Source: Bacteroidota bacterium
Lineage (GTDB): Bacteria; Bacteroidota; Ignavibacteria; Kapaibacteriales; Kapaibacteriaceae
Direction of reading: 5' to 3'
DNA: 64,000 bases
Assembly (NCBI GenBank): GCA_041170435.1
Contig: JBEAYU010000056.1
Coordinates: forward strand, 12,272-76,271
Made by a program: the position numbers and the translations under genes. Positions 3,318-19,009 of this stretch are shown here, piece by piece (position 1 is the first letter of the stretch; each line of letters opens with the position of its first letter). The notes beneath the pieces are model-generated. The model saw nothing but the letters and a program-made list of their open reading frames with translations. It ran no database searches and was not told the DNA's origin.

Positions 3318-3345
3318 TTTTGCATCGTTATGAATCGATGCAAAA
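3318..3345. promoter_or_regulatory. perfect 10-nt inverted repeat (TTTTGCATCG-N8-CGATGCAAAA) spanning the start codon of the first operon gene
   Basis: Read directly from the sequence at 3318-3327 and 3336-3345. The ATG at 3330 lies in the 8-nt spacer. Confidence 0.5.
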
Positions 3346-4340
3346 TTCTCTTCATCTGCGGCTCGGTGAACCAGACTACGATGATGGTGCAGATCGCACG
3401 ACATCTTGGTCATCACGATTGTTCCTTTACACCGCACTACGCCGATGGCCTCCTCGAGAAGGCGGCACGGGCAGGACTCCTTGAGTGGACGATCATTGGC
3501 AACCGTCATCGGCAGCGCGCGCTCGCCGTCCTTCAGTCACATGGTTGCAAGCTCGATGAGTATGGTCGCAACGGTGGGTATGACCTTGTGGTCACGTGCA
3601 GTGACCTTGTCGTACAGCGAAACGTCCGCAAACTGCCCGTGATCCTTGTTCAGGAGGGCATGACCGATCCAGAGAACCTGATGTACCGCGCAGTGGTAGC
3701 ACTTGGACTGCCACGGTATCTGGCTTCAACGTCGACATTTGGCCTGTCGCACATGTACCGACATCTCTGCGTGGCTTCAGAAGGATATCGAGAGCACTTC
3801 CGACGCAAGGGAGTCGATGACGCCAAGATTCGTGTCACAGGCATTCCCAACTTCGATGACTGCGCTCGATTCCTGGATGAACCGGTGGCACATCGCGACT
3901 ACGTCTTAGTGGCCACGAGCGATGCGCGCGAAACACTCAAGTATGAGGATCGTCAGCGCACCATTGAGTACGCCCTTTCCATTGCGGCCGGCCGGCAACT
4001 TGTCTTCAAACTTCATCCCAATGAACGGGTCGATAGGGCAAGGCGTGAGATCGAGCGATGGGCGCCCGGGTCGGCGATTTATCATGATTGCGACATCAAC
4101 CCGCTGATCGCTCATTGTGATGCACTGATAACAAAGTTCTCATCCTGTGTCTACGTAGGAATCGCCCTAGGAAAGGAAGTCTACAGTGACTTCTCGGTCG
4201 AGCAGCTCAGGCGTATGTGCCCGATTCAAAACGGGGGCACGTCGGCACAAGCCATTGCCGAGGTCTGCTCTGAGGTGTTGGAGCAAGGACTGAGCAATGA
4301 CGAGGGCCAACAGACATTTCAGTTCCGGAGGGCTATATGA
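3330..4340 (+). CDS. GT-B-like glycosyl/ulosonyl-transferase candidate with an HP motif (KpsS/KpsC-, TagF- or sialyltransferase-like family unresolved)
   Basis: N-terminal Rossmann-like ILFICGS...; conserved FKLHPNER 'HP' motif and a C-terminal ITKFSSCVYVGIALGKEVY block, both typical of HP-motif GT-B enzymes. The first gene of the operon; its stop overlaps the next start (ATGA). Confidence 0.45.
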   Translation: MNRCKILFICGSVNQTTMMVQIARHLGHHDCSFTPHYADGLLEKAARAGLLEWTIIGNRHRQRALAVLQSHGCKLDEYGRNGGYDLVVTCSDLVVQRNVRKLPVILVQEGMTDPENLMYRAVVALGLPRYLASTSTFGLSHMYRHLCVASEGYREHFRRKGVDDAKIRVTGIPNFDDCARFLDEPVAHRDYVLVATSDARETLKYEDRQRTIEYALSIAAGRQLVFKLHPNERVDRARREIERWAPGSAIYHDCDINPLIAHCDALITKFSSCVYVGIALGKEVYSDFSVEQLRRMCPIQNGGTSAQAIAEVCSEVLEQGLSNDEGQQTFQFRRAI

Positions 4341-5128
4341 TACTGAAGCCTCGGGTGGTGATCATCTGTCAGGCTCGCACAGGGTCGAGCCGCCTTCCAG
4401 GAAAGGTCCTTCTGCCAGTAGCAGGGGAGCCCCTTTTGATCCGATTTCTTGAGCGTGTTTCGATGTCGAAGCATGCAGGACACATGGTTGTGGCAACAAC
4501 GCACAGGCCGCAGGATGACGAGATCGTTCGCCTCTGCTCGGGACGAGGCTATTCGGTGTTCCGCGGAGATGAGAACGATTTGCTCGACCGGCATTTCCGT
4601 GCAGCGCAAATGATGGAGGCCGATGTTGTGGTCAAGATTCCCACTGACTGCCCCCTGATCGACCCACGGGTGATCGACATGGTCATCGACGCATTTCTCA
4701 GACGGTATCCGCACGTCGACTACGTCAGTAATCTGCATCCAGGTACCTGGCCCGACGGAAACGACGTCGAGGTCATGTCGTTCCTTGCTCTGCAACGTGC
4801 CTGGGTAAGTGCTACCAAGCCACATCAGCGTGAGCACACTACGCCGTGGCTGTGGGAAGACAACCTGAATACACGATGCATGAATGTTGAGCGGCCGGAT
4901 GGACGGAAACTTGACGACCGCCATCGGTGGACGATCGACCAGCCCGAGGACTACTTACTGATCCGAGCGGTGTTCGACGCACTGTATTGGAATGATCCGC
5001 GCTTTCGCTGTGAGGATGTGCTGTCGTTTCTGGAGAATCACCCGGAGATCGATCTGATCAACGAGCACCTGCGGGGTCAGAGCTGGTATGTGACGCATTT
5101 GCAAACACAGAAGAGGATCGCCTCATGA
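4337..5128 (+). CDS. acylneuraminate/CMP-ulosonate cytidylyltransferase family protein (NeuA/PseF/SpsF/KdsB-like)
   Basis: N-terminal VVIICQARTGSSRLPGKVLLPVAGEPLL matches the CTP_transf_3 nucleotide-binding motif (compare KdsB IIPARYASTRLPGKPL). Its length (263 aa) fits this family. Confidence 0.75.
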   Translation: MILKPRVVIICQARTGSSRLPGKVLLPVAGEPLLIRFLERVSMSKHAGHMVVATTHRPQDDEIVRLCSGRGYSVFRGDENDLLDRHFRAAQMMEADVVVKIPTDCPLIDPRVIDMVIDAFLRRYPHVDYVSNLHPGTWPDGNDVEVMSFLALQRAWVSATKPHQREHTTPWLWEDNLNTRCMNVERPDGRKLDDRHRWTIDQPEDYLLIRAVFDALYWNDPRFRCEDVLSFLENHPEIDLINEHLRGQSWYVTHLQTQKRIAS

Positions 5129-5982
5129 CGCATGAGCAACAGGAAGAATTGGAACAAGCTGCCCTGCGGGTGCGTCAGCACATTGTTCGGATGTCCACCA
5201 ATGGCGGCTGCTTCATCGGAGCGTCTTTGTCGTGCGCCGACATCTTGGTGTATCTCTACTGGCGCTACCTCAATATCAGTCCCATGACGGTGAACGCAGA
5301 GGACCGCGACGTACTGCTGCTGTCGAAGGGGCACGATGTACCGGCATTGTATGGAGTACTTGCAGAGAGGGGATTCATCAGCAAGACGCGGCTTGGGCAC
5401 CATCTCTCGGTTGAGGATAGCATCTACTGGCATCCGAACCGCTCCGTCAGCGGAGTGGAGTTCCACTCAGGCTCGCTCGGGCACCTGCTCAGCGTGGGCA
5501 TTGGGATGGCACTCGATGCGCGTATGAAGGGGCTGCCCACGCGAGTGGTCGTGATCCTTGGCGATGGCGAGCTCAACGAAGGAAGCATCTGGGAGGCATG
5601 CCTTGTTGCATCGGCTCTGAGCATCGACAATCTCGTGGCGATCGTCGACCGAAATCATTTTCAAGCGAACATTCGCACCGAAGATCTCATTCCGCTCGAG
5701 CCCCTTTCCGAAAAGTTCAGAGCCTTCGGTTGGGATGCCATGCACGTCAACGGCCACGACATGCGATCTCTCGACGAGTGCTTTGGCTCTCTGCAGCTCA
5801 ATACCGGACGTCCCACGGTTGTCATCGCCGACACACGAAGAGGTAAGGGGCTTCCCAGCATCGAGGAGCAGGCCGACCGTTGGTTCTGCAACTTCAGTGC
5901 CGATGAAGCCGATGCGCTCCTTGATGAGCTCAACGGAAATGCACGCGCCACCATCACCTCAGAAAGGCTTATCGTACGATGA
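5125..5982 (+). CDS. transketolase, N-terminal (ThDP-binding) subunit
   Basis: GDGELNEGSIWEA ThDP-binding motif; its length (285 aa) fits split transketolases; 4-nt overlap with both neighbouring genes. Confidence 0.85.
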   Translation: MTHEQQEELEQAALRVRQHIVRMSTNGGCFIGASLSCADILVYLYWRYLNISPMTVNAEDRDVLLLSKGHDVPALYGVLAERGFISKTRLGHHLSVEDSIYWHPNRSVSGVEFHSGSLGHLLSVGIGMALDARMKGLPTRVVVILGDGELNEGSIWEACLVASALSIDNLVAIVDRNHFQANIRTEDLIPLEPLSEKFRAFGWDAMHVNGHDMRSLDECFGSLQLNTGRPTVVIADTRRGKGLPSIEEQADRWFCNFSADEADALLDELNGNARATITSERLIVR

Positions 5983-6947
5983 ATGCCTACGAAACGCTCC
6001 TCCTCGATGCAGCCGCACGCGACGAGCGTCTGGTTGTGATCACGGCCGAGAACCGCGGCCACATGCGGACCGTTCCTCCGATGCTTGGAGATCGATTCAT
6101 AGACGTTGGGATCGCCGAACAGACGATGATCGGAATGGCTGCCGGCATGGCGGTGCGCGGTCGCGTTGTTGTGACGCATGCTCTGGCAGCATTTCTGACG
6201 ATGCGTGCCTTCGAGTTTATTCGTGACGACGTGGCGATCAGCAATGCCGCGGTGATCATGGTAGGCATGGTGCCCGGAGTACTCAGCGATGGGAATGGAC
6301 CAACGCATCAGGCCATCGAGGATGTGTCGATCATGCGCGGCCTGCCAAACGTCAACGTCTTCTGTCCATGCGACGAGCGTGACTTCATCGATGGCATGCG
6401 CGTACTGCTTGACTCACACGCACCATGGTACGTGCGCTACATCAGCACTCCGGATCTGCTGATCGATCGCGTAGCCTTTGAACCCGGCCGAGCAATGATC
6501 ATCCGTGGTGCTTCCCTGCATCGTCCGAACGTGACGATCCTTACCTACGGATTTCTCACCCGTCAGTGCATTGAAGCTGCGGATGAATTGGGTCGTGACG
6601 ACATTCATGTCCGCGTGGTACACATGCGGACCCTTAAACCGGTGGACGCTGCGACCATCCTCCATGCAGCCGCGACCAGCGAATTGGTCGTGACCGTGGA
6701 AGATCATCTCTTGACGGGTGGCTTGGCAACGATCGTTGCCGAGACTCTCATGGCACACGGGAAAGGGGCTCCCGTGCTCACGCTTGGCTTCCCAACGTGG
6801 TTTCGACCGGGGCGACTCAACGAGGTCCTTGAGTATGAACGCCTGAGCTCGCAGGCGATCGCACAGCGCATCCGCCAACGACTGGCCGATATCGTGCATC
6901 CGTCGACCGAGCCCCCTACACAACATCACGAGGTATCCCATGCATGA
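5979..6947 (+). CDS. transketolase, C-terminal (pyrimidine-binding/C-terminal domain) subunit
   Basis: DVGIAEQTMIGMAAGMA... and GPTHQAIEDVSIMRGLPN motifs of the transketolase Pyr and C-terminal domains. Forms a pair with the upstream N-terminal subunit. Confidence 0.85.
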   Translation: MNAYETLLLDAAARDERLVVITAENRGHMRTVPPMLGDRFIDVGIAEQTMIGMAAGMAVRGRVVVTHALAAFLTMRAFEFIRDDVAISNAAVIMVGMVPGVLSDGNGPTHQAIEDVSIMRGLPNVNVFCPCDERDFIDGMRVLLDSHAPWYVRYISTPDLLIDRVAFEPGRAMIIRGASLHRPNVTILTYGFLTRQCIEAADELGRDDIHVRVVHMRTLKPVDAATILHAAATSELVVTVEDHLLTGGLATIVAETLMAHGKGAPVLTLGFPTWFRPGRLNEVLEYERLSSQAIAQRIRQRLADIVHPSTEPPTQHHEVSHA

Positions 6948-8271
6948 ACCAACGTATCCGCCCATCCAGCGCTCCACGGAGTTACTCCAACGTGCCGAGC
7001 GCATCATTCCCGCGACCACGCAAACGCTCGCGAAAGGTCCCGGACAGCATGTGCGTGGCGTAGCGCCTGTCTATGCCCGTCGCGGTAAGGGGGCATACCT
7101 GTGGGACGTCGATGATAACAGATACCTTGACTACTCGATGGCCATTGGACCGCTGATCCTGGGCTACGCAGATCCGGGAGTGAACCGCGCCATCGAGGCT
7201 CAGCTGCATGATGGAATCACATTCTCGCTCATGCATCCTCTGGAAGTGGAGGTTGCGGAGCTGATCCATGGGATCATCCCAAACGCCGAGAACGTGCGCT
7301 ATTCGAAGACGGGGTGTGACGTCACGTCAGCCGCCGTGCGCTTGGCACGTGCCTATACCGGCCGCTCCACCGTGCTCTGCTGTGGATACCATGGCTGGCA
7401 CGACTGGTACATCGCCACGACAGATCGCGCCATGGGTATCCCTCATGCCGTGCGTGACCTGACATATACGTTCAGCTACAACAGCATTCAGAGTGTGTAC
7501 AATGCTATCGATGCCGATACGGCAGCGATCATTCTTGAGCCGATGACCTTCGATGAACCGAACGATGGATTCTTGCAAGAGTTGCGTGAACTGTGTGATC
7601 AGCGTGGCATCGTTCTAATCTTCGATGAGATGTGGACCGGCTTTCGGATCTCTCCCGGCGGTGCACAAATGCGATTCGGTGTCAAGGCAGACCTTGCATG
7701 CTTCTCAAAGGCCGTGGCCAATGGTATGCCGCTGTCTGTTCTGACGGGGCGTGCCGACATCATGCGCCTGCTTGAGCATGATGTATTCTTTTTTACGACC
7801 TTTGGCGGGGAAGCTCTATCACTTGCCGCTGCCAAGGCCACACTTCATCGCCTCGTTGACGGCGAAGTCCTACAGCGCATCGAGCTCATCGGCGATGAAC
7901 TCCGAGAAGGTATCCGGGGAATTCTTGCCGATAATTACATGTCGTATGTCAGCTGCAAGGGGCTTGGTGCACGTACGATGCTGGCGTTCTCGGACACGGC
8001 GGGTGACCCGTTGCTGATGAGGTCGTTCATCCAGCAAGAACTCCTCAAGAACGGGATTCTTTGGAACGGCTTCCATAACCTGAGCGCCTCGCACACGCCA
8101 AGCGATATCCAGTATACTCTCGATATCTACTCAGAGGTCCTTCCCATGCTTCACGAGCACATTCGCATGGGGACACTCGCGATGTCGCTTCGGGGCCGCC
8201 CCGTCGAGCCGGTGTTCCGCAAGACTGGGGGCTTTAATACCAAACCTCGCGTTGAGGTGCACGAGCAATGA
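6940..8271 (+). CDS. class III (glutamate-1-semialdehyde 2,1-aminomutase-like) PLP aminotransferase
   Basis: HemL-family signature: GxxFS...YxKTGCDV..., DEMWTGFRIS and SKAVANGMPLS (PLP-lysine region). 443 aa. Confidence 0.8.
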   Translation: MHEPTYPPIQRSTELLQRAERIIPATTQTLAKGPGQHVRGVAPVYARRGKGAYLWDVDDNRYLDYSMAIGPLILGYADPGVNRAIEAQLHDGITFSLMHPLEVEVAELIHGIIPNAENVRYSKTGCDVTSAAVRLARAYTGRSTVLCCGYHGWHDWYIATTDRAMGIPHAVRDLTYTFSYNSIQSVYNAIDADTAAIILEPMTFDEPNDGFLQELRELCDQRGIVLIFDEMWTGFRISPGGAQMRFGVKADLACFSKAVANGMPLSVLTGRADIMRLLEHDVFFFTTFGGEALSLAAAKATLHRLVDGEVLQRIELIGDELREGIRGILADNYMSYVSCKGLGARTMLAFSDTAGDPLLMRSFIQQELLKNGILWNGFHNLSASHTPSDIQYTLDIYSEVLPMLHEHIRMGTLAMSLRGRPVEPVFRKTGGFNTKPRVEVHEQ

Positions 8272-9074
8272 ATGATATGTTTTCACTCTCGGGTAGGGTG
8301 GCGATCGTCACCGGCGCTGGCGGGCTCCTTGGACGTGAGCATTGCGTGGCTTTGGCCGATGCAGGGGCAACCGTGTATGCGTGTGACATCAATGCGAATG
8401 CAGCATGGGCGGTTGCCTCCGAGATCGGTTCACATCACGTTGGCGTTGCCCTTGATGTCACCGATTCAGAGAGTATCGTCGAGCTTCGGCAGCGCATCCT
8501 ATCTGACACCGGACGCATTGACGTGCTCATCAACAACGCAGCAATGAACGACATGGTCGAAGCACCACTCTCCACCGGCGCTGTCTCGGCCTTCGAGAAC
8601 TATCCGCTAGACCTGTTTCGACGAGTTCTGGATGTGAACGTCACGGGTGTGTTTCTCACCAGCCAGATCATCGGTTCACACATGGCAAGCGTCGGACGCG
8701 GATCGATCATCAATGTCGCATCTACCTACGGAGTGGTCGCACCCGATCAGCGCCTCTACAGACGTTCCGACGGAACGCAGACATTCTTTAAGAGTGCCGC
8801 CTATCCTGCTTCGAAGGGGGCGGTCGTGATGCTCACGAAGTTCCTGGCAACCTATTGGGCCAGACAGGGTGTTCGGGCCAATGCATTGTCACCCGGAGGG
8901 GTGGCTAACGGACAGGACGAGCATTTTCAACATCTGTATGCCGAGCGTACTCCCATGGGTCGGATGGCAGCACCCTCAGACTACAGGTCGGCACTCGTTT
9001 TCCTGGCGTCTGACGCATCGGCATACATGACGGGACAGAACCTCATCGTCGATGGGGGCTGGACCGCATGGTAA
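8268..9074 (+). CDS. short-chain dehydrogenase/reductase (SDR) family oxidoreductase
   Basis: TGAGGLLG Rossmann motif, NNAA and the catalytic YPASK motif. Confidence 0.85.
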   Translation: MNDMFSLSGRVAIVTGAGGLLGREHCVALADAGATVYACDINANAAWAVASEIGSHHVGVALDVTDSESIVELRQRILSDTGRIDVLINNAAMNDMVEAPLSTGAVSAFENYPLDLFRRVLDVNVTGVFLTSQIIGSHMASVGRGSIINVASTYGVVAPDQRLYRRSDGTQTFFKSAAYPASKGAVVMLTKFLATYWARQGVRANALSPGGVANGQDEHFQHLYAERTPMGRMAAPSDYRSALVFLASDASAYMTGQNLIVDGGWTAW

Positions 9075-9141
9075 TTGTTTCAACGATCATTCACGCGCAT
9101 GCCGCAGCAGCACACCTTCTTCAATCTTCGCAGAGGTCAAC

Positions 9142-10038
9142 ATGAACAGCACGTCACAACCGGTACCGGCCATTGGAGCCGATGCGCCAGTGTACATCAT
9201 CGCCGAGGTCGGTATCAATCACAATGGCTCGCTTGACATTGCAACCGAAATGATCCAGGGGGCTGCCCGAGCCGGCGCTTCATGTGTGAAGTTCCAGAAG
9301 CGAACTCCCGAACTGTGCGTTCCGCGTGATCAGTGGCACATTGAGCGCGACACGCCATGGGGTCGAATGACCTACATCGACTATCGCCACAAGGTGGAAT
9401 TCACCGAGTCTGATTATCGCGTGATCGATGCATTGTGCCGTGAACTTGGAATTGATTGGACCGTTTCCTGCTGGGATGAAGAAGCGGTGGCCTTCATGGA
9501 GGCAAACTTCGACGTTTCCTTCTACAAGGCTGCGTCGGCATCACTGACCGATCTGAAGCTGCTTCGCGCCATGGCCTCAACCGGCAAGCCTCTGATGATA
9601 TCGACCGGCATGTCAACGATCGACGAGATTGAAGCTGCCGTGTCTGCCCTGAACGGACATCGGCTGATGATCGCCCATGCAACGTCGGCCTATCCGTGCT
9701 CGACGGATGAGCTCAATCTGCGCATGATCCACACGCTTGCACAGCGGTTCCCGGAGAGCACTATTGGCTACAGTGGTCACGAGGTTGGTTTGGCCACCAC
9801 GTACGCAGCCGTTGCTCTCGGCGCCCGATTTGTTGAACGCCACATCACGCTCGATCGGGCAATGTGGGGAACGGATCAGGCCGCAAGTGTTGAGATCGCG
9901 GGTCTTGAGCGCATGGTCCGCGACATCCGCGAGATCGAACGCTCACTCGGTGATGGCGTCAAGCGCTTGTATGATAGTGAGCTCGGTGTTCGCGCTAAGC
10001 TGCGCCGAGTTCCCTCGTCCATCGCAGGAGAAGCCTAA
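9142..10038 (+). CDS. N-acetylneuraminate synthase (NeuB/PseI/LegI) family protein, TIM-barrel only, with no C-terminal SAF domain
   Basis: ORF 9052..10038; likely start at the internal ATG 9142 (MNSTSQ...). IIAEVGINHNGSLD is the hallmark N-terminus of NeuB-family PEP-condensing synthases. The protein ends at ~298 aa, before where the SAF/antifreeze-like domain would sit. Confidence 0.75.
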   Translation: MNSTSQPVPAIGADAPVYIIAEVGINHNGSLDIATEMIQGAARAGASCVKFQKRTPELCVPRDQWHIERDTPWGRMTYIDYRHKVEFTESDYRVIDALCRELGIDWTVSCWDEEAVAFMEANFDVSFYKAASASLTDLKLLRAMASTGKPLMISTGMSTIDEIEAAVSALNGHRLMIAHATSAYPCSTDELNLRMIHTLAQRFPESTIGYSGHEVGLATTYAAVALGARFVERHITLDRAMWGTDQAASVEIAGLERMVRDIREIERSLGDGVKRLYDSELGVRAKLRRVPSSIAGEA

Positions 10039-10041
10039 GCG

Positions 10042-10806
10042 ATGGAGCTAACGCTTGCCACCGTCTGCGCGATCATTGTGATCCTCTCGGGGGCTCTGCT
10101 CATTCTGTTGGAGCGACTGTTCCCGTACAATCGCGGCCAACGTCTGTTTCGTCAAGGGTTCATCACGGATCTCGGTCTGTATGCCATCGTTCAGAGCTAC
10201 CTCCTTGGATTGGTAATCTTTGGCTTCATTGCATGGATCGACCAACAGACCGGAGTGAGCCGCTGGACGTTCTTTCGATCTCAGAACCTGTGGGTGCAAA
10301 TGCTGGTTGTGCTCGTTGTCCACGACTTCTACATCTACTGGTTCCACCGATGGCAGCACAAGAGCCCCCTACTGTGGAGGATCCATGAGGCCCATCACTC
10401 GACGAAAGATGTTGATTGGCTCAGTGGATCGCGGTCGCATAGCCTGGAGATCTTGGTCAACCAGACCGTGGAGTTTCTTCCGATCGTTCTGCTGGCATCA
10501 GCCGAGATCGCGGTCATGAAAGGAGCCGTTGATGCGATCTGGGGCATGTACATCCACTCAAACATCGATGTGCGCTCGGGTTGGATGCAGCGTCTGATCA
10601 ACGGACCGGAAATGCACCGGTGGCATCATGCTGATGACCACCGGTCACACAATCGCAACTTTTCTACGAAGCTCGCCGTCTGGGACTGGCTATTCGGAAC
10701 GGCCTATCTACCGGCTGACGAAAAGCCGGGAGCGTATGGCTTGGACGATGAGTTTCCGAAAGGGTACATTGGACAGCATCTCCATGCGTTCCGACGTCGA
10801 CGCTGA
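10042..10806 (+). CDS. fatty acid hydroxylase / sterol desaturase superfamily integral membrane protein
   Basis: Hydrophobic N-terminal half plus histidine boxes HDFYIYWFHRWQH, HEAHHS and HRWHHADDH (di-iron membrane hydroxylase family, like OlsE/ERG3/CrtZ). Confidence 0.75.
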   Translation: MELTLATVCAIIVILSGALLILLERLFPYNRGQRLFRQGFITDLGLYAIVQSYLLGLVIFGFIAWIDQQTGVSRWTFFRSQNLWVQMLVVLVVHDFYIYWFHRWQHKSPLLWRIHEAHHSTKDVDWLSGSRSHSLEILVNQTVEFLPIVLLASAEIAVMKGAVDAIWGMYIHSNIDVRSGWMQRLINGPEMHRWHHADDHRSHNRNFSTKLAVWDWLFGTAYLPADEKPGAYGLDDEFPKGYIGQHLHAFRRRR

Positions 10807-11575
10807 TCTCCGGATCGTCGAGCTCGACGATGTCGAACAAATCGTCGAAGCTTCCGAACGGGAGCGAATCGATGCCCATCTGGCAGTTGCGCTCGATGTT
10901 GATACCATTCTCGTATCCGACCTTCATCTCGGTTCGGACGTGGCAAGGTCACGGGCTCTAGTCATGATGCTCAAGACACACTCATACAAAAGGCTGGTCC
11001 TAAACGGAGACGTGTTTGACGATTTGAACTTCAAGCGTTTGACGAAGGACGACTGGAAGGTTCTGTCACTTCTTCGTCGTCTGTCGAATCCACGTCGAGG
11101 TATCGAAGTGGTCTGGATCGTTGGAAACCACGACGGGGGAGTGGCGGAGATCTTGACCCATTTACTGGGAGTACCCGTGCATGAGGAGATGGTCTTCACG
11201 GTTGCCGGCAAGAGGCATCTGGCCATCCACGGTCATCAGTTCGATCGCTGGATCACGAAGCATGTGACGATCACAGCGATTGCCTCGGCCTTGTATCTGC
11301 TCTTGCAGCGCCTCGATCCTAAGCATCGAGTGAGTCGGTGGGTGAAGAGAACAAGCAAGAAGTGGCTGAGACTCAGCGATAAGATCGCTCATGACGCGGT
11401 GTCACACGGACGTCGAAATCACAGTGTTCAGTTTGTCCACTGCGGACATACGCACATGCCTACGATCAAGCAGGTTGATGACATGGTATACGTCAATTCT
11501 GGTTGCTGGACTGATAAGCCATCAACATACGTCGTGGTCGATCATCAGGGAGATGTTCAGCTGCATTCCATGTAG
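10784..11575 (+). CDS. LpxH-like calcineurin-type metallophosphoesterase (UDP-2,3-diacylglucosamine hydrolase family)
   Basis: ORF 10628..11575 overlaps the upstream gene; likely start at 10784 (MRSDVD...). Motifs VSDLHLG, NGDVFDD, VGNHDG, HGHQFD and CGHTH match LpxH/MPE metal-binding blocks. Confidence 0.65.
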   Translation: MRSDVDADLRIVELDDVEQIVEASERERIDAHLAVALDVDTILVSDLHLGSDVARSRALVMMLKTHSYKRLVLNGDVFDDLNFKRLTKDDWKVLSLLRRLSNPRRGIEVVWIVGNHDGGVAEILTHLLGVPVHEEMVFTVAGKRHLAIHGHQFDRWITKHVTITAIASALYLLLQRLDPKHRVSRWVKRTSKKWLRLSDKIAHDAVSHGRRNHSVQFVHCGHTHMPTIKQVDDMVYVNSGCWTDKPSTYVVVDHQGDVQLHSM

Positions 11576-11605
11576 AACCGTTTCGTAGCTTCCGCATGGA
11601 ACTGC

Positions 11606-12331
11606 ATGCATCATGACCATTCAACTCGCCCCGTTCTTTTTGATGTCCGACACGTCACGAAATCCTATCGAATGGGTGAGCTCGATGTTGTTGCACTGAA
11701 CGACGTCTCGTTGATGGTCCGTCAAAGCGAGCTCCTTGTGATACTCGGGGCATCGGGCAGCGGTAAGTCGACGCTTCTGAACATCCTCGGAGGCTTGGAC
11801 GTCCCAACGACGGGCACCGTGACGTATCGTGATCAGGATCTTTCGCACGCCACAGACGCGAAGCTGACGGAGTTCCGACGCCGTTCCGTGGGTTTTGTGT
11901 TCCAGTTCTACAACATCATACCGAGTCTGACGGCTCTTGAGAACGTGCGACTCGTGACGGATCTTGTCGACGAGCCTATGGATCCGCGTCAGGCACTGGA
12001 GTTGGTGGGCCTGGCCGATCGAGCATCGCACTTTCCTTCGCAAATGTCAGGGGGCGAACAGCAGCGGGTTGCCATCGCACGTGCCATCGCGAAGCGCCCC
12101 GACGTGCTCTTGTGCGATGAACCCACCGGCGCTTTGGATTTCGAGACCGGAGTCAAGGTCCTCGAAGTGATCGACATGGTTCATCGTGAGCTGGATGCGA
12201 CCGTGGCACTGATCACGCACAACGCGAGCATTGCCGACATGGCCGATCGCGTCCTTCGCATGCGGAGTGGGTCGATCGTCGAGGAGTTCGCCCCGGCGGT
12301 TCGAAAGCAGCCGCGAGAGCTGTCGTGGTGA
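11606..12331 (+). CDS. ABC transporter ATP-binding protein (MacB/LolD/DevA-type)
   Basis: Walker [13 protein letters not shown] signature [14 protein letters not shown], Walker [12 protein letters not shown]. Confidence 0.9.
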
Positions 12332-14694
12332 TTCCGACGCTCACCATCAAGTTGTTCCGAGAGGTCCGCCACATGCGCGGACAAATGATTGCGATTATCC
12401 TTGTGATCGCCGCTGGAATTGCCAACTACGTTGCCTTTCAGAGCACGCACTCATCTCTTGTAATGTCGCAGCAAGCCTACTACGCCGCTTCAAACTTCGG
12501 CGACGTGTGGGTGCAGGTCAGGCGCGCACCCGAGGCACTGCGTCAGCGGATCTCTGCCATTGACGGCGTAACAAGTGTTGACCTGCGGGTTGTGGCCAGT
12601 GTGGTTGTGGACATTCCCGGTCTCATCGAGCCGGCAAGCGGCGTCATTACCAGTGTGCCGGGCCGTGATCAGCCCCCTATCAATCGACTCAGCCTGCGGT
12701 CCGGACGCTGGATAGAGCAGGGTGCGACGGACGAGGTGATCGTTTCCTATGCCTTTGCATCCGCCAATGGGTTTCATGAGGGCGACACCATCAATGCTGT
12801 CATTAACGGACGATGGAAGTCGCTGCGCATCGTGGCCACTGCGTTGTCACCCGAATGGATTTTGGAGCTGGTGCCGGGCTCCATGTTGATCGACAACAAG
12901 CGTTTTGCCGTCATGTGGATGGAGCATGATGCGCTTTCCTCGCTGTATGACATGTCCGGTGCGTGGAACAGCGCGTGTATTGATCTTGCTCCCGGAGCGA
13001 GCGTTTCTTCGACCATCGACCGTCTTGACGCGATGCTGCGTCCACATGGCACCACGGGAGCCATTGCACGTGAAGATCAATTGTCACACAAGTTTCTATC
13101 TGACGAGATACGGCAGCTGTCGCTCACGGCGCTTGTGGTTCCCTTGATCTTTCTCGGTGTTGCGATCTTCCTGTTGAATGTGTCGCTGCTCCGCTTCGTG
13201 ACCACGCAGAGGGCCTACATCGCCATTCTCAAGGCATTTGGATACAGCAATGCTCGAATCTCGCTACACTACGTTGGCTTTGCCGTCGTGGCGGTTGCCG
13301 GCGGTACGGTCCTTGGTCTGGCAGGGGGCCTGTACATCGGTGTCAAGCTCGTACAGATGTATCTCGACTTCTACCGGCTGCCAGTGTTGGAGTTTGACAT
13401 GCCCGTGCTGGTGGTGATCGGGGCGATCATCATGAGTCTTGTTGCGGCATCTCTCGGAGCTATGGCTGCCGTTCGGGCGATCGTGCGACTGCCACCGGCC
13501 GAGGCGATGCGTCCGGAGTCGCCTCGCTCGTATCGCGGAGGGATCCTCGAACGCAGCGGCGTAACGCGGTTCTTTGGTCCGATAACATCGATGATCGTAC
13601 GCAACGTCATGCGTCGTCCGGTCAGAGCCGCCGTGAGCCTGATGACCATTGCCCTTGCCTTGTCGCTCCTGGTGCTCGGACGCTTCTTCATGGAGATGTT
13701 TGGAACCATCATCGACGTTCAGTTCAACTCCGTTGCTCGAGAAGATGCGGCTGTGACGTTTATGACACCGCTTTCGCATGGCGTGGTGCACGATCTAGCC
13801 GCATTGCCGGGAGTGATGGCCGTCGAACCCTTCCGAGCGATCTCTGTCGATTTGATCGCCGGCTCGACGGTCAAGCGAACCGCCGTGACGGCGGGTGTTG
13901 ACATGCCTGACCTGCACCGTGTCACATCCATGAGTGGGCAACCACAACGCGTGCCCTCGCACGGAGTGGCGTGTTCTCAGTACATGGCCGAGTCCATGGG
14001 CATCGGAGTTGGCGATACGATACAGCTGCGGCAGATCGACGATCAACGGCGGACCTTTACAGTCGCGGTCACGGCCGTGATCGATGACATGATGGGTGTC
14101 CAAGTGTATGCATCACACGGTGTGCTCAGAAGTTTACTGCGAGAGCAGGGAAGTATCAGTGGGGCCTTTCTGCAGATCGATCCGGCCAAGCTGCAGGACT
14201 TTTACCGCGCCATCAAGAAGCTCCCATCCATGTCGAGCGTGGTCATGCGTGAGCGAGCAATGCGTAGCTTCGATGAGAGTTACATGCAGTTCATGGACAT
14301 TTCGAATTTCTATATCGTGTTCTTCGCTTCCCTTATTGCCTTTGGCGTGGTGTTCAACAACGCTCGCATTGCACTGAGCGAGCGAGGCAATGAACTTGCG
14401 AGCCTGCGTGTCCTCGGCTTCTCTGTCCGGGAAGTGTCGATGATCCTTCTCGGCGAACAGCTCGTGCTCACACTGGCAGCGCTACCGGTAGGGTTGATAT
14501 GGGGCGTGCTGTGGTCGATGTGGATGCCTTCACTCATCGCCACGGATCTGTTTCGATTTCCGTTTGCCATCAGCATGCGGAATCTCGGTCTCAGTAGCGC
14601 GATGATCCTGACTGTGGCTGCCGTCACGGGGGTGTTCATTCGACGTCGTATTGGGCGATTGGACATGATCGCCGTCTTGAAATCACATGAATGA
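12325..14694 (+). CDS. ABC transporter permease with two FtsX-type domains (MacB/DevC-like, fused double permease)
   Basis: 789 aa. Two hydrophobic FtsX-like blocks (~aa 260-400 and the C-terminal ~140 aa), each preceded by a large soluble domain. The start overlaps the ATPase gene. Confidence 0.75.
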
Positions 14695-15851
14695 CCATGA
14701 AGCTTCCTCATCTTCGATACATCGGATGGATCGTCACGGCACTCGTCGTGGTGTCCGTCATCATCTATGCGCTACTACCAACTCCTCTGGACGTGGAGCA
14801 GGTTCGCGTCGTACGACAGCATGTGCAGACGACCATCGAGGCAGATGGAGCGATGCGCGTACGAGATAAGTACATCGTTGCCATGCCTGCCACTGGTGTT
14901 CTTGAGAGGCTCTCGATCGAAGCCGGTGATAGTGTCGTGGCTGGTCAGATCATCGGCACGATGATCCCTCCGGAGATCGATGCGCGCCAGCGGGCCGAGG
15001 CCGAGAACCGTGTTCGCTCAGCTGAGGCCGGTAGCGTCGAGATACGCCAGAGACGTGCTTCGCTGAGCCCCTTGGTAGAACAGGCTCGCAGGCGAGCTGA
15101 GAGGCTAGCGCGTCTTGATCAGGCTGGAGCGGTTTCGAAGGAGCAGGTTGAGAACGCCCGGGATGCTTTTGAGCAGCTTCAGCGTGAGGTAGATGCTCTG
15201 CGCGCACGTGAGCAAGCCATTGGGTATGAGACGCAGGCAGTGCGAAGCATGCTTGCGGCCCGACCCGGGCAGCGTGTTGCCGTGCGTGCCCCAACCACCG
15301 GTATTGTGCTTCGCCGCTACGAGTACTCTGAACGGACCATCCCGGCCGGAACTCCGATCGTAGAGATCGGTGACACATCGAACATGGAGGTTGTGATCGA
15401 TGTATTGAGCGCTGACGCGGTGCGCGTTCGTCCCGGCATGAGGGTTAACCTCGATGGGTGGGGAGGGGGCACACGGATCTTCGGAACGGTTCGACGCATC
15501 GAGCCGTCCGCGCGCACAAAGGTCTCCTCTCTCGGCATCGAGGAGCAGCGCGTGTCTGTCATCGCCGACGTGACCGATCGCCCCTCATCGCTTGGAGATG
15601 GCTACCGCGTCGAGGCGGCGATCGTCCTCTCCGAGGCACGAAATGCTCTCTGTATCCCACTCGGAGCGTTGCTTCGAGACGGCAACCAGTGGTATGTGTT
15701 CGTGGTCTACGCCGGAATTGTCCAACGAAAGGATGTGACCCTTGGCGAACGGAATGCCCTGTTGACCGCCATCACATCGGGCCTCAGTGAGGGTGATCAC
15801 GTCATCATGCACCCGTCGGAGAAGATCCGTCCGGGCGACAACGTTCGCTGA
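14691..15851 (+). CDS. HlyD-family membrane fusion (periplasmic adaptor) protein
   Basis: N-terminal TM helix, long coiled-coil region (EAENRVRSAEAGSVEIRQRR...LQREVDALRAREQ) and a C-terminal beta-barrel region, typical of MacA/DevB. 4-nt overlap with the permease gene. Confidence 0.8.
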   Translation: MTMKLPHLRYIGWIVTALVVVSVIIYALLPTPLDVEQVRVVRQHVQTTIEADGAMRVRDKYIVAMPATGVLERLSIEAGDSVVAGQIIGTMIPPEIDARQRAEAENRVRSAEAGSVEIRQRRASLSPLVEQARRRAERLARLDQAGAVSKEQVENARDAFEQLQREVDALRAREQAIGYETQAVRSMLAARPGQRVAVRAPTTGIVLRRYEYSERTIPAGTPIVEIGDTSNMEVVIDVLSADAVRVRPGMRVNLDGWGGGTRIFGTVRRIEPSARTKVSSLGIEEQRVSVIADVTDRPSSLGDGYRVEAAIVLSEARNALCIPLGALLRDGNQWYVFVVYAGIVQRKDVTLGERNALLTAITSGLSEGDHVIMHPSEKIRPGDNVR

Positions 15852-15859
15852 TCAGCCCC

Positions 15860-18800
15860 TTAGGCTGGGTACGTCGTCGCTCCGCCGGCTCCGTGACAGG
15901 CCTTGAACTTCATGCCGGAACCGCATGGGCACGGTTCGTTACGTCCAACCTTGCGGCCGACATTTCGAACAGTGGCCGTCTGCTGAGCCTCCTGCTGCGC
16001 ATTCGGATCCGATCCAAAGGTTGGCGTCGCACTCGGATGCGAGAACCGCAGTTGACGCGTTGGCGTTGAGGTGGTGACCGAAGGCACAGGAGCAGGGCGG
16101 GGAGCTGCCTGAGCCGCCGGACGTTCCACGACCTGTGGGAAGTACTTAAAGGCGAACGACACCGTAGCCTCATTGATCTGTGTGATCAGCTCGAGGAAGA
16201 TGCGATACGCCTCTTGTTTGTATTCAAGGATAGGGTCTTTCTGTCCGTAAGCTCGGAGGTAGATACCTTCCTTAAGATCATCCATCACCCGAAGGTGTTC
16301 TCTCCATTCGTCGTCCACGGCACGTAAGGCGGCAACGCGCTCGAGCTGCGCCATGAACTCCGGTCCGAGCATGGATTCTTTGCGGTCGTAGAATTCGATA
16401 ACGGATTCCCTGACCCGCTCCAGCACCTCACTCTTCGGTTCCGACGCAAATGCCTCTGCCGAGACGTTGGGTTCGCAGAGCATCTTAGCGCGGATGGTGT
16501 TCATGAATGCGGTGTGATCGCCCGACGGGTGATGTTCATCGTACCAGAGCTCGCACAGCTCCGATGCGTATTCGATCATCTCGCTACGCAGACGCTCTCC
16601 CATAAGCGCGTGGCGACGTCGATCATAGATCACCTCGCGCTGTTGATTCATCACGTTGTCGTATTCCAGCAGGCGTTTACGAATGCCGAAGTTGTTTCCT
16701 TCGACTTTTTTCTGTGCATTCTCAACGGCCTTGGTCACGATGCCGCTCTCGATCGGTTCGCCCTCCGGAACCTTCATGCGCTGCATTGCTGATGACAACC
16801 GCTCGCCACCGAACAGACGCATCAGATCGTCCTCGAGCGAGATGAAGAACTGCGACGAGCCCGGGTCTCCCTGACGTCCCGCACGGCCGCGCAGCTGACG
16901 GTCGATGCGCCGCGCCTCGTGGCGCTCCGTACCGATGATGGCAAGGCCCCCTGCCGCTTTCACGTCTGGATCCAGCTTGATGTCTGTACCGCGGCCTGCC
17001 ATGTTCGTTGCGATCATGACGGCACCCTTCTTCCCGGCATTGGCCACGATCTCAGCCTCGCGCTGATGCTGCTTGGCATTCAGGACATTGTGGTTGACGT
17101 TGGCGCGCTTGAGCATCTTCGACAGAAGTTCGGAGACTTCGACGCTGGTCGTGCCGACAAGTACGGCGCGGCCGGCTTTGAGCTCCCGTTGGACAGCCTC
17201 AACGACGGCGTTGTACTTCTCGCGCTTGGTGCGGAAGATCAGATCATTCATGTCCTTGCGCTGTACCGGACGATTCGTCGGGATCGCTACCACGTCGAGA
17301 CTGTAGATCTGCCAGAACTCGGCAGCCTCGGTCTCGGCCGTACCGGTCATTCCGGCGAGCTTGTGGTACAGTCGAAAGTAGTTCTGAAGCGTGACCGTGG
17401 CGAACGTCTGCGTGTCCTGTTCAACGAACACGCCTTCCTTTGCTTCAATGGCCTGATGAAGTCCGTCAGAGTAGCGTCGCCCTTCGAGGATGCGGCCCGT
17501 GAACTCATCGACGATCTTGATCTTCCCATCCTGGACGACGTATTCGTCGTCGCGGACATACAGCGTGTATGCCCGCAGAAGTTGATTGACGATGTGGATG
17601 CGGTCCGAACGATCCGAGAACACGCGCATGAGCTCGTCACGCTTCGTCGTCTTTTCTTCCGGACTTATGCTTGCGTCTCCTTCGAGGGCGCTCATCTGAG
17701 CGGCAATGTCCGGAATCACAAACATCTCCGGGTCTTCCTGTGCCGATGTCAGCAGGTCGCGCCCCTTTTCCGAGATGTCGATCGAGTGGTTCTTCTCGTC
17801 AACGGTAAAGAAGAGCTCCTTGTCGATGATGTGCATGCGCTGACCTTGATCGCGCAGGTGATCAAGTTCCGCATCACGCAGCAGCTTCATCGCATCAGGC
17901 TCCTGCAGCAGCTTCATGAGTTTGCTCTGCTTTGGCATGCCTCGATGAGCCCGCAGAAGAAGAACGCCGGCATTGGTCCTATCCTCCTTGTAGCCTGTTG
18001 CGAGGAGCTTTTCAGCCTCTGCAACGATGCCGTTGACGTATCTGGCCTGTGCATCAACCAGACGCTGAATACGGGGCTTCATCTCGACGAAGGCCGTTTC
18101 TGTGCTACCGGCCGTGACCGGGCCAGAGATGATAAGGGGCGTTCGGGCTTCGTCGATCAGAACCGAGTCGACTTCATCGACCATGGCAAACCAGTGTCCC
18201 CGCTGCACCATGTCCGCTGGCTCGGTCACCATGTTATCACGCAGATAATCGAAGCCAAACTCGTTGTTCGTGCCCCACGTGATATCGGCAGCGTATTGCG
18301 CCTTACGTTCGTCCGGCCGCATATCTGACTGGATGCACCCGGTTGTCACTCCCAAGAGATCGAAGATGGGTCGCATCCACTCGCGGTCACGTCGGGCCAG
18401 ATAATCGTTCACCGTCACCAGATGCACACCGCGTCCTGCGATGGCATTGAGATACATCGGCAACGTGGAGACGAGTGTTTTACCCTCACCCGTGCCCATC
18501 TCGGCGATCTTTCCTTGGTGGAGGACGATGCCGCCGATGAGCTGGACGTCATAGGGTACCATATCCCAGGTCTGCTCATTGCCCACGACGAGATACTTGT
18601 GTCCGACGAGTCGACGTCCGGCCTCTTTGACAACGGCAAACGCCTCCGGGAGAATCTCATTGAGTGCCTCTTGCGTGGCCTCAAACTGCTCTCGCTCGTT
18701 GGCATTGAGTCGTGCGTAGAGGTCGGAACGCTCTGTGTGATCCATCTCCAGATCCGTGCGAAGCCGCTCGCGGATCTCTTCTGCCTCGGCTCGAAGGTCT

Positions 18801-19009
18801 GCCACGGCCTCGATGACTCTCTCGCGGAACTGGCGAGTCTTGTCACGCAGTTCGTCGTTGCTGAGCGCGGCAAGCCCAGAAAAATGTTCGTTGATCTGAG
18901 CCACAAGGGGCTGGAGCTGCTTGACGTCCTTCTCGTGCTTTGAACCGCCGACAAGTGACTGCAGAAACTTTAGCATGACATGGTTGCGTTTGTTGACAGA
19001 TTGGCCCAA
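15860..19009 (-). CDS. secA: preprotein translocase ATPase SecA
   Basis: 1049 aa. DEAD-like motor motifs (MGTGEGKTLV, IDEVDSVLIDEARTPLIISG), the SecA scaffold/wing and a C-terminal zinc-binding tail CPCGSGMKFKACHG. Confidence 0.95.
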   Translation of the reverse strand: MGQSVNKRNHVMLKFLQSLVGGSKHEKDVKQLQPLVAQINEHFSGLAALSNDELRDKTRQFRERVIEAVADLRAEAEEIRERLRTDLEMDHTERSDLYARLNANEREQFEATQEALNEILPEAFAVVKEAGRRLVGHKYLVVGNEQTWDMVPYDVQLIGGIVLHQGKIAEMGTGEGKTLVSTLPMYLNAIAGRGVHLVTVNDYLARRDREWMRPIFDLLGVTTGCIQSDMRPDERKAQYAADITWGTNNEFGFDYLRDNMVTEPADMVQRGHWFAMVDEVDSVLIDEARTPLIISGPVTAGSTETAFVEMKPRIQRLVDAQARYVNGIVAEAEKLLATGYKEDRTNAGVLLLRAHRGMPKQSKLMKLLQEPDAMKLLRDAELDHLRDQGQRMHIIDKELFFTVDEKNHSIDISEKGRDLLTSAQEDPEMFVIPDIAAQMSALEGDASISPEEKTTKRDELMRVFSDRSDRIHIVNQLLRAYTLYVRDDEYVVQDGKIKIVDEFTGRILEGRRYSDGLHQAIEAKEGVFVEQDTQTFATVTLQNYFRLYHKLAGMTGTAETEAAEFWQIYSLDVVAIPTNRPVQRKDMNDLIFRTKREKYNAVVEAVQRELKAGRAVLVGTTSVEVSELLSKMLKRANVNHNVLNAKQHQREAEIVANAGKKGAVMIATNMAGRGTDIKLDPDVKAAGGLAIIGTERHEARRIDRQLRGRAGRQGDPGSSQFFISLEDDLMRLFGGERLSSAMQRMKVPEGEPIESGIVTKAVENAQKKVEGNNFGIRKRLLEYDNVMNQQREVIYDRRRHALMGERLRSEMIEYASELCELWYDEHHPSGDHTAFMNTIRAKMLCEPNVSAEAFASEPKSEVLERVRESVIEFYDRKESMLGPEFMAQLERVAALRAVDDEWREHLRVMDDLKEGIYLRAYGQKDPILEYKQEAYRIFLELITQINEATVSFAFKYFPQVVERPAAQAAPRPAPVPSVTTSTPTRQLRFSHPSATPTFGSDPNAQQEAQQTATVRNVGRKVGRNEPCPCGSGMKFKACHGAGGATTYPA

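Follow-up and report, generated by a model that had tools for sequence, protein, structure and literature searches.

The window analysed here is a 64,000-nt stretch of contig JBEAYU010000056.1, from a bacterium of the Kapaibacteriaceae (Bacteroidota), and our subject is a locus at 3330-15851 on its + strand. Twelve same-strand open reading frames (ORFs) span the locus. The first nine include a NeuB-family synthase and a cytidylyltransferase and are predicted to build and attach an activated sugar acid; the last three encode an ATP-binding cassette (ABC) pump with its adaptor. The genes are numbered 1 to 12 in the order of Table 1.

Gene content of the locus

Stop and start codons overlap by 4 nt at 4337/4340, 5125/5128, 5979/5982 and 8268/8271 and by 8 nt at 6940/6947; all five of these junctions had been listed in an earlier note on this DNA and were recovered. 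Further overlaps are found at 12325/12331 (7 nt) and 14691/14694 (4 nt). The start of gene 7 is almost certainly internal to its long ORF, giving a product of 298 aa, since homologues are 294-300 aa long and cover 85-91% of that ORF. For gene 9, the most likely start is the ATG at 10784 (263 aa, with a 23-nt overlap with gene 8), because the alignment of homologues from loci that lack gene 8 begins only at residue 63-73 of the long ORF. The base composition of the locus is unremarkable. Pfam recovered every domain named in the earlier note and, as that note had stated, no DegT-type aminotransferase, 4,6-dehydratase or acetyltransferase domain was found by Pfam in the 12 genes of the interval.

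Gene 7 matches the NeuB domain (PF03102) with 247.9 bits against a cut-off of 22.1. H179 (in AHATSAYP) and H213 (in YSGHE) are invariant in 12 diverse members of the family; they are the metal-binding histidine pair of the 'HxTSxYP' and 'SxH' motifs, as known from N. meningitidis NeuB. The SAF (antifreeze-like) domain closes over the N-acyl sugar in NeuB-family synthases. No SAF domain match was found in gene 7, where about 24 residues follow the NeuB domain. Among solved structures, SpsE, PseI and the 290-aa 6ncs are its nearest relatives. The equivalog models are not reached (237.6 bits against 399.65 for NeuB_NnaB and 190.6 against 340.25 for PseI). Gene 2 contains a CTP_transf_3 domain (PF02348, 80.7 bits). 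Its best solved relative is the cytidylyltransferase 6oew (142 bits), followed by KdsB structures, and the KdsB models score 38-68 bits, below their cut-offs of 155-281.

Genes 3 and 4 together hold all three transketolase domains. Gene 3 matches Transketolase_N (PF00456, 95.6 bits) and NF004559 (227.6 bits) and has the GDG...N thiamine diphosphate (ThDP) motif in its translation, and gene 4 matches Transket_pyr (PF02779, 97.7 bits) and Transketolase_C (PF02780, 84.7 bits); the catalytic glutamate of 'IAEQ' is present. The best solved relative of gene 4 is 6yaj, the C-terminal chain of the Carboxydothermus split transketolase (140 bits). The summed equivalog scores of the pair (227.6 + 180.4) are below the cut-off of 488. 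Gene 5 is an Aminotran_3 protein (PF00202, 168 bits) that scores 361.7 bits with PRK06209, under the cut-off of 486; its relatives in the PDB include glutamate-1-semialdehyde (GSA) aminomutases, an aminopentol aminotransferase and aminoglycoside C-6' aminotransferases, which act on sugar or polyol carbonyls. Gene 6 is a short-chain dehydrogenase/reductase (SDR; PF13561, 155.8 bits). The nearest NCBIfam models are gluconate 5-dehydrogenase and PRK09186, and the nearest solved structures are gluconate 5-dehydrogenase and galactitol dehydrogenase.

Gene 8 matches FA_hydroxylase (PF04116) with 106.7 bits against a cut-off of 31, a family of membrane lipid hydroxylases. Its best-scoring named model is OlsE, but the score of 118.5 bits is so far under the cut-off (475) that orthology with OlsE is excluded. 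Gene 9 matches Metallophos_2 (PF12850, 42.7 bits), and the DxH, GD, GNHD and GHxH motifs are present. The two LpxH equivalogs are not reached (30.6 bits against 134 and 28.3 against 190).

Table 1. Genes of the locus, with coordinates in the window
Gene	Coordinates	Strand	Product	Domain or predicted role
1	3330..4340	+	GT-B-fold enzyme, isolated family	likely lipid sugar-acid transferase
2	4337..5128	+	KdsB/NeuA/SpsF-type cytidylyltransferase	predicted CMP-ulosonate synthetase
3	5125..5982	+	split transketolase, ThDP-binding N-terminal subunit	Transketolase_N
4	5979..6947	+	split transketolase, pyrimidine-binding and C-terminal subunit	Transket_pyr + Transketolase_C
5	6940..8271	+	class III (GSA-aminomutase-like) pyridoxal phosphate aminotransferase	Aminotran_3
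6	8268..9074	+	classical SDR, polyol/sugar-acid dehydrogenase type	PF13561
7	9142..10038 (ORF opens 9052)	+	SAF-less NeuB-family synthase, condensing with phosphoenolpyruvate (PEP)	PF03102
8	10042..10806	+	membrane di-iron hydroxylase, FA_hydroxylase family	PF04116
9	10784..11575 (ORF opens 10628)	+	calcineurin-like metallophosphoesterase, predicted phosphatase	PF12850
10	11606..12331	+	ABC ATPase, LolD/DevA/MacB/YbbA clade	PF00005
11	12325..14694	+	789-aa permease, two FtsX domains, MacB/YbbP type	PF02687
12	14691..15851	+	periplasmic adaptor (membrane fusion protein)	HlyD_3

A hairpin at 3318-3345, with a 10-bp stem (TTTTGCATCG / CGATGCAAAA) and an 8-nt loop, encloses the ATG of gene 1 (3330) and might control translation of the operon's first gene. 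Rfam found no riboswitch or other RNA near the locus.

Conservation of the cassette in other genomes

When one genome per species was scanned, 545 relatives of the NeuB homologue came up; gene content was then established in the best 80 loci by tblastn with the window proteins. The carriers belong to at least five phyla and are Kapabacteria, Ignavibacteria, Sorangium, Byssovorax and other Polyangiaceae (Myxococcota), Nitrospirota, Bdellovibrionota and Methylococcaceae. The set of six genes preceding NeuB is complete in 44 of the 59 loci that have at least 6.9 kb of sequence on that side; five of the 59 lack the transketolase pair alone and eight lack genes 1-5. Complete cassettes are colinear on one strand in 44 of 46 cases, and gene 8 directly follows NeuB in 46 loci. 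The single gene unit proposed in the earlier note is thereby borne out for the first eight or nine genes. The conserved unit consists of genes 1-8 and a phosphatase, and genes 10-12 are outside this core. Wherever this can be assessed, a locus has either both gene 1 and gene 2 or neither. The cassette proteins of relatives are 45-70% identical to those of the window. The NeuB homologues of these phyla share 65-90% identity, suggestive of strong constraint and of a horizontal spread of the cassette.

In two Polyangiaceae (Myxococcota) metagenome-assembled genomes (MAGs), a fused 677-aa transketolase encoded after the hydroxylase replaces the split pair (11597-13630 in locus L054 and 11469-13649 in L058; the L numbers are our own for the kept loci). 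Because these genomes retain the enzyme at another position, the transketolase is, as judged from gene content, a genuine member of the pathway that was selected as part of the system, the role that the earlier note had given it.

The phosphatase was counted in the 67 loci with enough flanking sequence. A KdsC-type haloacid dehalogenase (HAD) is found near NeuB in 25 loci, a metallophosphoesterase of the gene 9 type in 21 and a PAP2 phosphatase in four. The HAD and the gene 9 type are never found together (0/67). The HAD of the relatives has 176 aa and adjoins NeuB, usually between the SDR and NeuB genes. It scores best with the KDN-9-P phosphatase model (146-157 bits, under the equivalog cut-off of 180) and passes the KdsC/YrbI subfamily model TIGR01670 (133-140 bits against 107). 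As gene 9 never co-occurs with the KdsC-type HAD in relatives, it is probably the sugar-phosphate phosphatase of the pathway, a better reading than the 'LpxH-like phosphoesterase' of the earlier note. The simplest reading is that one phosphatase step would be filled by non-homologous enzymes. It would follow from a shared phosphatase step that the NeuB homologue makes a phosphorylated ulosonate, and gene 7 probably does so, by a route of the KDN or animal type; the earlier note had not raised such a phosphorylated route. A fusion of NeuB with a phosphatase is known in Leptospira (PMC3438082).

On an Azospirillum thermophilum plasmid (L087, NZ_CP029359.1), the gene of a SAF-less NeuB with 41% identity precedes those of a 361-aa HAD protein, an O-methyltransferase and a PhyH dioxygenase, and this module adjoins a canonical LegB/LegC/NeuC set for legionaminic acid (Leg). 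The reading of the cassette as a standard Leg cluster was considered and set aside: apart from NeuB and HAD, the plasmid locus has nothing in common with it. Since the SAF-less NeuB is followed by an HAD on this plasmid also, the two may form a wider module.

Two reduced versions of the cassette were seen. Five loci in gammaproteobacterial MAGs (L003, L034, L042, L044 and L070, including 'USCg_Taylor') contain only the SDR and NeuB. Their opposite strand encodes a PAP2 phosphatase together with a soluble protein of 299 aa that has EExxH...DExxH di-iron motifs and matches AurF weakly. These proteins are 90-93% identical between the MAGs. The oxygenase alternates much as the phosphatase does, being a membrane FA_hydroxylase in most loci and the soluble EExxH...DExxH protein in the gammaproteobacterial group. 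In five loci of Chloroherpetonaceae/Chlorobiales MAGs (L028, L031, L032, L033 and L041) the cassette is reduced to NeuB, the KdsC-type HAD and the FA_hydroxylase, with no cytidylyltransferase, gene 1, aminotransferase or SDR in the vicinity.

A cultured methanotroph, Methylomagnum ishizawai, carries the entire cassette on a plasmid (L084; pRS11DPr1, NZ_AP019784.1 156407-177261). Downstream of it lie the HAD, lplT, a GNAT N-acyltransferase and a lysophospholipid acyltransferase (an OlsB/OlsA-like pair), and GT39 and GT2 glycosyltransferase genes lie upstream. RefSeq gives only generic product names for this cassette. None of the cassette proteins has an equivalog in NCBIfam release 20 (June 2026), all equivalog cut-offs being missed, and no description of the gene set was found in the open-access full-text literature, the corpus that was searched. 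The earlier note's statement that the locus is not a cluster for sialic (Neu), legionaminic or pseudaminic (Pse) acid or Kdo agrees with the missed cut-offs and the generic names. It had named a prior assignment of the gene set to a characterised pathway as the finding that would speak against a new one, and no such assignment appears in the open-access literature, NCBIfam or RefSeq.

Gene 1, the predicted acceptor and the neighbouring pump genes

Gene 1 is a 'hypothetical protein' in every source. Its AlphaFold (AF2) model (mean predicted confidence, pLDDT, 87.7) has a GT-B fold. The residues K227-L-H229-P230 of the 'KLHPNE' motif are invariant; an 'HP' motif is also carried by the β-Kdo transferases KpsS and KpsC. 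The sole profile match in the PDB is the TagF-like polymerase Cps3D (E 3.7e-4), with 'LITkYSS' aligned to 'LITDYSS', and the comparison with KpsC is not significant (E 0.8). The earlier note had proposed PF04464 and PF05159 as checks on gene 1, and neither is matched above threshold; below threshold, Glyphos_transf (PF04464) is matched by 21 of 30 family members and PF05159 by one of the 30. An exhaustive phmmer search of 1.84 billion representative proteins returned only 452 clusters at E <= 0.001, which marks the gene 1 family as a small one that stands apart from the large families of epimerases and TagF.

In three representative clusters (P0245, P0246 and P0251), an N-terminal LPG_synthase_TM domain, the flippase domain of MprF-type proteins, is fused to the gene 1 domain (56-76 bits against 33.4). 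Such a fusion heads the cassette in L091, where it is followed by CTP_transf_3 and Transketolase_N. In seven Myxococcota loci, three of them in Sorangium genomes, the LPG_synthase_TM module immediately precedes gene 1. No LPG_synthase_TM homologue was found in the window. These fusions and adjacencies, together with the strict pairing of gene 1 with the cytidylyltransferase, indicate that gene 1 most likely transfers the CMP-activated sugar to a membrane lipid, and we are reasonably confident that it is a transferase rather than a hydrolase. The acceptor is accordingly predicted: a membrane lipid is most likely, and the flippase-domain fusions lend support to what had been one of the options of the earlier note. 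A single fusion of gene 1 with FA_desaturase (P0247), on a 3.3-kb contig and just below the Pfam cut-off, is anecdotal.

Membrane proteins adjoin the cassette in several lineages. The HAD gene of Methylococcaceae shares a 4-nt overlap with a gene named lplT (lysophospholipid transporter) in RefSeq. In Bdellovibrionota, the hydroxylase gene is followed by a SugE-type small multidrug resistance (SMR) gene and then an MMPL gene with gaps of 15-18 nt, and in Byssovorax by an MMPL gene. TetR, outer-membrane factor and resistance-nodulation-division (RND) adaptor genes adjoin the cassette in L001, L084 and L091; L001 also has the gene of an RND (ACR_tran) pump, and the contig of L091 ends in a 402-aa gene without annotation. 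A SugE/Gdx-type SMR gene (~108 aa) abuts the cassette in four loci of three phyla: L038 (11726-14631, then MMPL), L077 (10870-11199, overlapping NeuB by 4 nt), L049 (3189-3512) and L040 (from 10141). Two of the loci with an abutting SMR gene are from Nitrospirota and one is Ignavibacteria-type.

In the window, the genes next to the cassette are those of the ABC/FtsX/HlyD trio. Gene 10 matches ABC_tran (PF00005, 121.5 bits) and scores 205 bits with LolD, 196 with DevA and 192 with YbbA, all below the cut-offs. Gene 11 matches FtsX (PF02687, 83.2 bits) in two stretches. Gene 12 matches HlyD_3 (54.6 bits) and the RND_mfp subfamily (130.3 bits against a cut-off of 94.9). The specific cut-offs are missed for DevA (196 bits against 295.8), DevB (50 against 129), MacA (79.5 against 342) and MacB (185 against 966), and the pump is of a generic MacB/YbbP type, as far as family assignment goes. 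The earlier note regarded genes 10-12 as the exporter of the cassette product. The ATPase, FtsX and HlyD domains are present as it described, on the same strand with internal overlaps and 30 nt after gene 9, and a scan between genes 9 and 10 gave no convincing promoter or terminator pattern. The three genes co-occur in 14-15 loci and remain close to the cassette, placed in one of three ways: immediately following gene 9, at a distance of four genes (L017), or immediately ahead of gene 1 (L022). However, all of these loci are Kapabacteria-type. The trio is absent from every non-Kapabacteria locus searched and also from the Kapabacteria-type loci L010, L018, L024 and L026, where secA directly follows the cassette. 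Inherited gene order explains much of the adjacency, because synteny is no weaker for two unrelated upstream genes, thyX and that of a cytochrome c peroxidase, than for the trio. A functional link is still plausible, as the window lacks a flippase-domain homologue and other lineages carry different membrane translocators at equivalent positions, which would fit non-orthologous replacement. At best, the trio is one of several lineage-specific translocators, and the earlier note's full version, in which it is an integral and dedicated exporter of the product, is a serious possibility to which we give somewhat less than an even chance.

The same CMP-activated sugar acid could instead be attached to a glycan or protein, such as the core or O-antigen of lipopolysaccharide (LPS), a capsule, or S-layer or flagellin glycans. 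Most known clusters of NeuB and a CMP-sugar synthetase serve glycans. The closest solved homologue of gene 7, SpsE, comes from the legionaminic acid pathway of the spore crust (PMC7439481), and the SpsF-like 6oew was a structural-genomics target; GT2 and GT39 genes are found just upstream of the cassette in M. ishizawai, and the TagF-like enzymes that are distant relatives of gene 1 build polymers. Against this, the cassette has no conserved association with a polysaccharide polymerase, Wzx/Wzy, KpsMT or any other glycosyltransferase. The recurring neighbours are the MprF-type flippase domain, LplT, MMPL and a lipid-type membrane hydroxylase. We consider a glycan or protein acceptor rather unlikely.

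A further alternative concerns gene 1 itself, which might be a nucleotide-sugar hydrolase or 2-epimerase like NeuC, LegG or PseG that releases the aldose for NeuB, with the transferase encoded elsewhere. The earlier note had called gene 1 an HP-motif GT-B transferase, and of this the fold and the motif stand, but the transferase activity is less secure. The fold matches NDP-sugar 2-epimerases slightly better than TagF, with Foldseek giving the same order of families, and structure alone does not separate hydrolase/epimerase from transferase. Epimerase_2 is the most frequent sub-threshold Pfam match of the family (28/30 members; 20.3 bits against a cut-off of 30.6 for gene 1). An hhalign comparison of the family with an approximate E. 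coli WecB sequence lined up the VTG, RE, H(x)NP and LGK motifs (E 0.008), but in the C-terminal half only, and is too weak to choose between epimerase and transferase. However, the C-terminal motif is the TagF-like 'LITxYSS', and the 'DSGGxQEE' of epimerases is absent. Gene 1 also tracks gene 2 and not NeuB, since both are missing from the lineages with only SDR and NeuB or HAD and NeuB. A phospho-sugar route with a KdsC-type phosphatase needs no hydrolysis of an NDP-sugar, and it is difficult to see why a soluble hydrolase would be fused to a lipid-flippase domain. We regard this alternative as improbable, and less likely than a glycan acceptor.

That the cassette makes a soluble small molecule for the adjacent pumps (an amino sugar acid, an azasugar or an aminoDAHP-like precursor) would suit the parallel of the enzyme set with kanosamine/aminoDAHP and 1-deoxynojirimycin logic and the recurrence of SugE-type SMR and RND/ABC efflux genes. 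Natural-product pathways of this kind combine an aminotransferase, a dehydrogenase and a phosphatase, and the AHBA route also a transketolase and a PEP-aldolase. This reading is nevertheless very unlikely: an acceptor is implied by the pairing of a CMP-activating with a GT-B enzyme, the cassette has no conserved cyclase, dehydratase or tailoring genes beside it, and the flippase-domain fusions and membrane hydroxylase point to lipids.

A proposed pathway and its relation to known systems

A CMP-activated product of the ulosonic acid type is the most economical reading of the core genes, because the NeuB homologue keeps its metal-binding histidine pair and the CTP_transf_3 enzyme always pairs with gene 1; this supports the product type suggested in the earlier note. 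Taken together, we think it slightly more probable than an even chance that genes 1-9 (3330-11575) are a conserved, horizontally mobile cassette for a new amino-substituted 3-deoxy-2-ulosonic acid, similar to Kdo, KDN or sialic acid, that would be CMP-activated and attached to a membrane lipid. Gene content, cassette conservation, unbroken catalytic motifs, phosphatase alternation and the fusions to a flippase domain are observed; in the scheme that follows, the chemical steps, the identities of the sugar and the acceptor, and the role of the pump are predicted from sequence.

The split transketolase (genes 3 and 4) would supply a sugar phosphate, and the aminotransferase (gene 5) and SDR (gene 6) would install an amino group as an oxidation/transamination pair. 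The SAF-less NeuB homologue (gene 7) would then condense the phosphorylated aldose with PEP to an ulosonate phosphate. Dephosphorylation would be carried out by gene 9 here and by the KdsC/KDN-9-P-type HAD in most other lineages, and the cytidylyltransferase (gene 2) would make the CMP-sugar. Gene 1 would move the sugar to the lipid acceptor at the cytoplasmic face of the membrane, and gene 8 would hydroxylate the acceptor lipid or its head group. Finally, a lineage-dependent translocator would flip or export the product; here this could be the MacB-type ABC pump and adaptor (genes 10-12).

The earlier note placed amination and reduction after the two-carbon transfer. This is chemically plausible and is one of at least three plausible orders. 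The ketose phosphate might be aminated directly and then oxidised to an amino-aldose phosphate, for which GabT1 of Bacillus in 1-deoxynojirimycin synthesis is a precedent. A secondary alcohol of the sugar phosphate might be oxidised and then transaminated, as with NtdC/NtdA and RifL/RifK in kanosamine synthesis; the aminoDAHP branch of the kanosamine pathway also uses a transketolase and a PEP-condensing enzyme. Alternatively, the finished ulosonate might be oxidised and then aminated, as with KdnB/KdnA in Kdo8N formation (PMC5125639). Neither the relatives of the SDR nor those of the aminotransferase decide between the three. The substrate of the aminotransferase is probably an ordinary sugar phosphate, one that a housekeeping transketolase can supply, because lineages without the cassette transketolase keep the aminotransferase. 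On the same ground, a sphingoid base made from a fatty aldehyde by transketolase and aminotransferase was dropped. A link to the 'aminoglycosphingolipid' of Chlorobium (Jensen 1991, as cited in PMC11762602) is at most a tentative lead, with no Chlorobium locus among the relatives.

Several points weigh against the proposed pathway. No phosphatase is found nearby in 17 of the 67 loci. The exclusion between the HAD and gene 9 is partly inherited, as each type dominates different clades. A KdsC-type HAD was not found in the window and neither was the flippase module, so that both arguments rest on relatives. Some lineages, moreover, retain only SDR and NeuB, or HAD, NeuB and hydroxylase, without genes 1 and 2, and the NeuB product may therefore also be used without CMP activation.

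To our knowledge, all characterised routes to such sugars start either from nucleotide sugars (Neu, Leg and Pse) or from arabinose 5-phosphate via KdsA (Kdo). By the defining features of the Neu, Leg, Pse, Kdo and KDN families, the cassette, as read from its genes, is outside all five. It resembles a hybrid of a KDN/Kdo route, an oxidation/transamination module and an MprF-like synthase-plus-flippase. The KDN pathway of Bacteroides thetaiotaomicron, the animal Neu5Ac-9-P route and the Leptospira fusion (PMC3438082) share with it a NeuB synthase, a KdsC-family HAD (in the relatives) and CMP activation. Unlike in these systems, a metallophosphoesterase takes the place of the HAD here, the synthase lacks SAF, and the gene set is extended by a transketolase, a class III aminotransferase, an SDR, a membrane hydroxylase and a member of the gene 1 family. 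The Kdo pathway (KdsD-KdsA-KdsC-KdsB-WaaA) offers the same predicted sequence of condensation of a sugar phosphate with PEP, dephosphorylation, CMP-sugar formation and GT-B transfer to lipid, but the condensing enzyme of the cassette is NeuB-type; there is no KdsA (DAHP_synth_1) domain and no isomerase, and amination is added. With the Neu5Ac, Leg and Pse pathways, including SpsC-G/M of B. subtilis (PMC7439481), the cassette has in common a NeuB synthase, an SpsF/NeuA-type cytidylyltransferase and a GT-B protein of NeuC/PseG-like fold. It differs from them in its class III aminotransferase, transketolase and phosphatase and in having no 4,6-dehydratase, DegT aminotransferase or N-acetyltransferase.

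In Shewanella, a dehydrogenase and an aminotransferase aminate an ulosonic acid, destined for a lipid, to Kdo8N (Gattis et al. 2013, as cited in PMC5125639). KdnB is an Fe-dependent alcohol dehydrogenase, not an SDR; the system acts on KdsA-made Kdo and has no synthase, transketolase or transferase of its own. In MprF, as in the fusions found in relatives, an N-terminal LPG_synthase_TM is combined with a cytoplasmic domain that transfers a head group. The catalytic domain of gene 1 is instead GT-B, its predicted donor is a CMP-sugar and not an aminoacyl-tRNA, and in the window gene 1 stands alone. KpsS/KpsC with KpsMT-KpsE-KpsD export (PMC11041684) and TagF resemble the system in their GT-B enzymes, cytidine-nucleotide donors and lipid-linked acceptors, with an ABC exporter and adaptor nearby, but the match to KpsC is insignificant, the similarity to TagF is confined to the C-terminal motif, and the pump is not KpsMT. 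Genes 10-12 are like DevBCA/MacAB in having a LolD/DevA/MacB-clade ATPase, an FtsX permease and a membrane fusion protein in one operon. They are unlike them in the single two-FtsX permease, in the lack of an adjacent outer-membrane factor gene and in a linkage to the cassette that is limited to one class. Gene 8 belongs to the same membrane di-iron FA_hydroxylase family as OlsE, the head-group hydroxylase of ornithine lipids (PMC12971839), although OlsB/OlsA-like genes are near the cassette only in M. ishizawai.

What is new is a widespread cassette in which one enzyme family, that of gene 1, has no assigned function. If the model holds, it would add a new sugar with its own biosynthetic logic, a new transferase family and probably a new envelope lipid. 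Its furthest extension, an undescribed class of membrane lipids whose amino-ulosonic head group is built de novo, starting with a sugar phosphate made by the transketolase, and attached by a new GT-B family acting as an MprF-like synthase plus flippase, is offered tentatively and has well under an even chance. Such a lipid would give an anionic or zwitterionic outer-membrane surface to Kapabacteria, methanotrophs, Nitrospirota and Sorangium. Sialic-acid-like and Kdo-like sugars shape ion binding, antimicrobial resistance, and host and phage recognition of bacterial surfaces. Sorangium cellulosum So ce56 reportedly lacks LPS, and in Sorangium the lipid might substitute for or supplement it. The groups concerned, Kapabacteria, Ignavibacteria, USC-gamma-type and other methanotrophs and Nitrospirota, are environmentally important and poorly cultured. 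The model is nevertheless directly testable, because there are cultured carriers: Methylomagnum ishizawai RS11D-Pr (cassette at about 164.5-173.3 kb of its plasmid), Methylotetracoccus oryzae C50C1 and Sorangium, among them S. cellulosum So ce26 (CP012673, about 7.153-7.174 Mb).

The locus is flanked by housekeeping genes, thyX and a di-haem (cytochrome c) peroxidase gene upstream and secA on the opposite strand downstream. SecA (15860-19009, - strand, 1049 aa) matches the 290-position SecA_DEAD profile over residues 22-566, which implies a large insertion in its motor domain. A 469-aa ORF antisense to secA and inside it (16919-18328, + strand) has no Pfam match and is probably a shadow ORF. 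The sole Rfam match in the window is a bacterial RNase P RNA of class A (33822-34268, - strand, 254 bits). Three large proteins encoded further downstream are probably secreted or on the surface: an 820-aa protein with several Ig domains (21318-23780), a 1574-aa protein whose sole match is a C-terminal FlgD_ig-like domain (41928-46652) and a 1425-aa subtilase with FG-GAP repeats (56232-60509).

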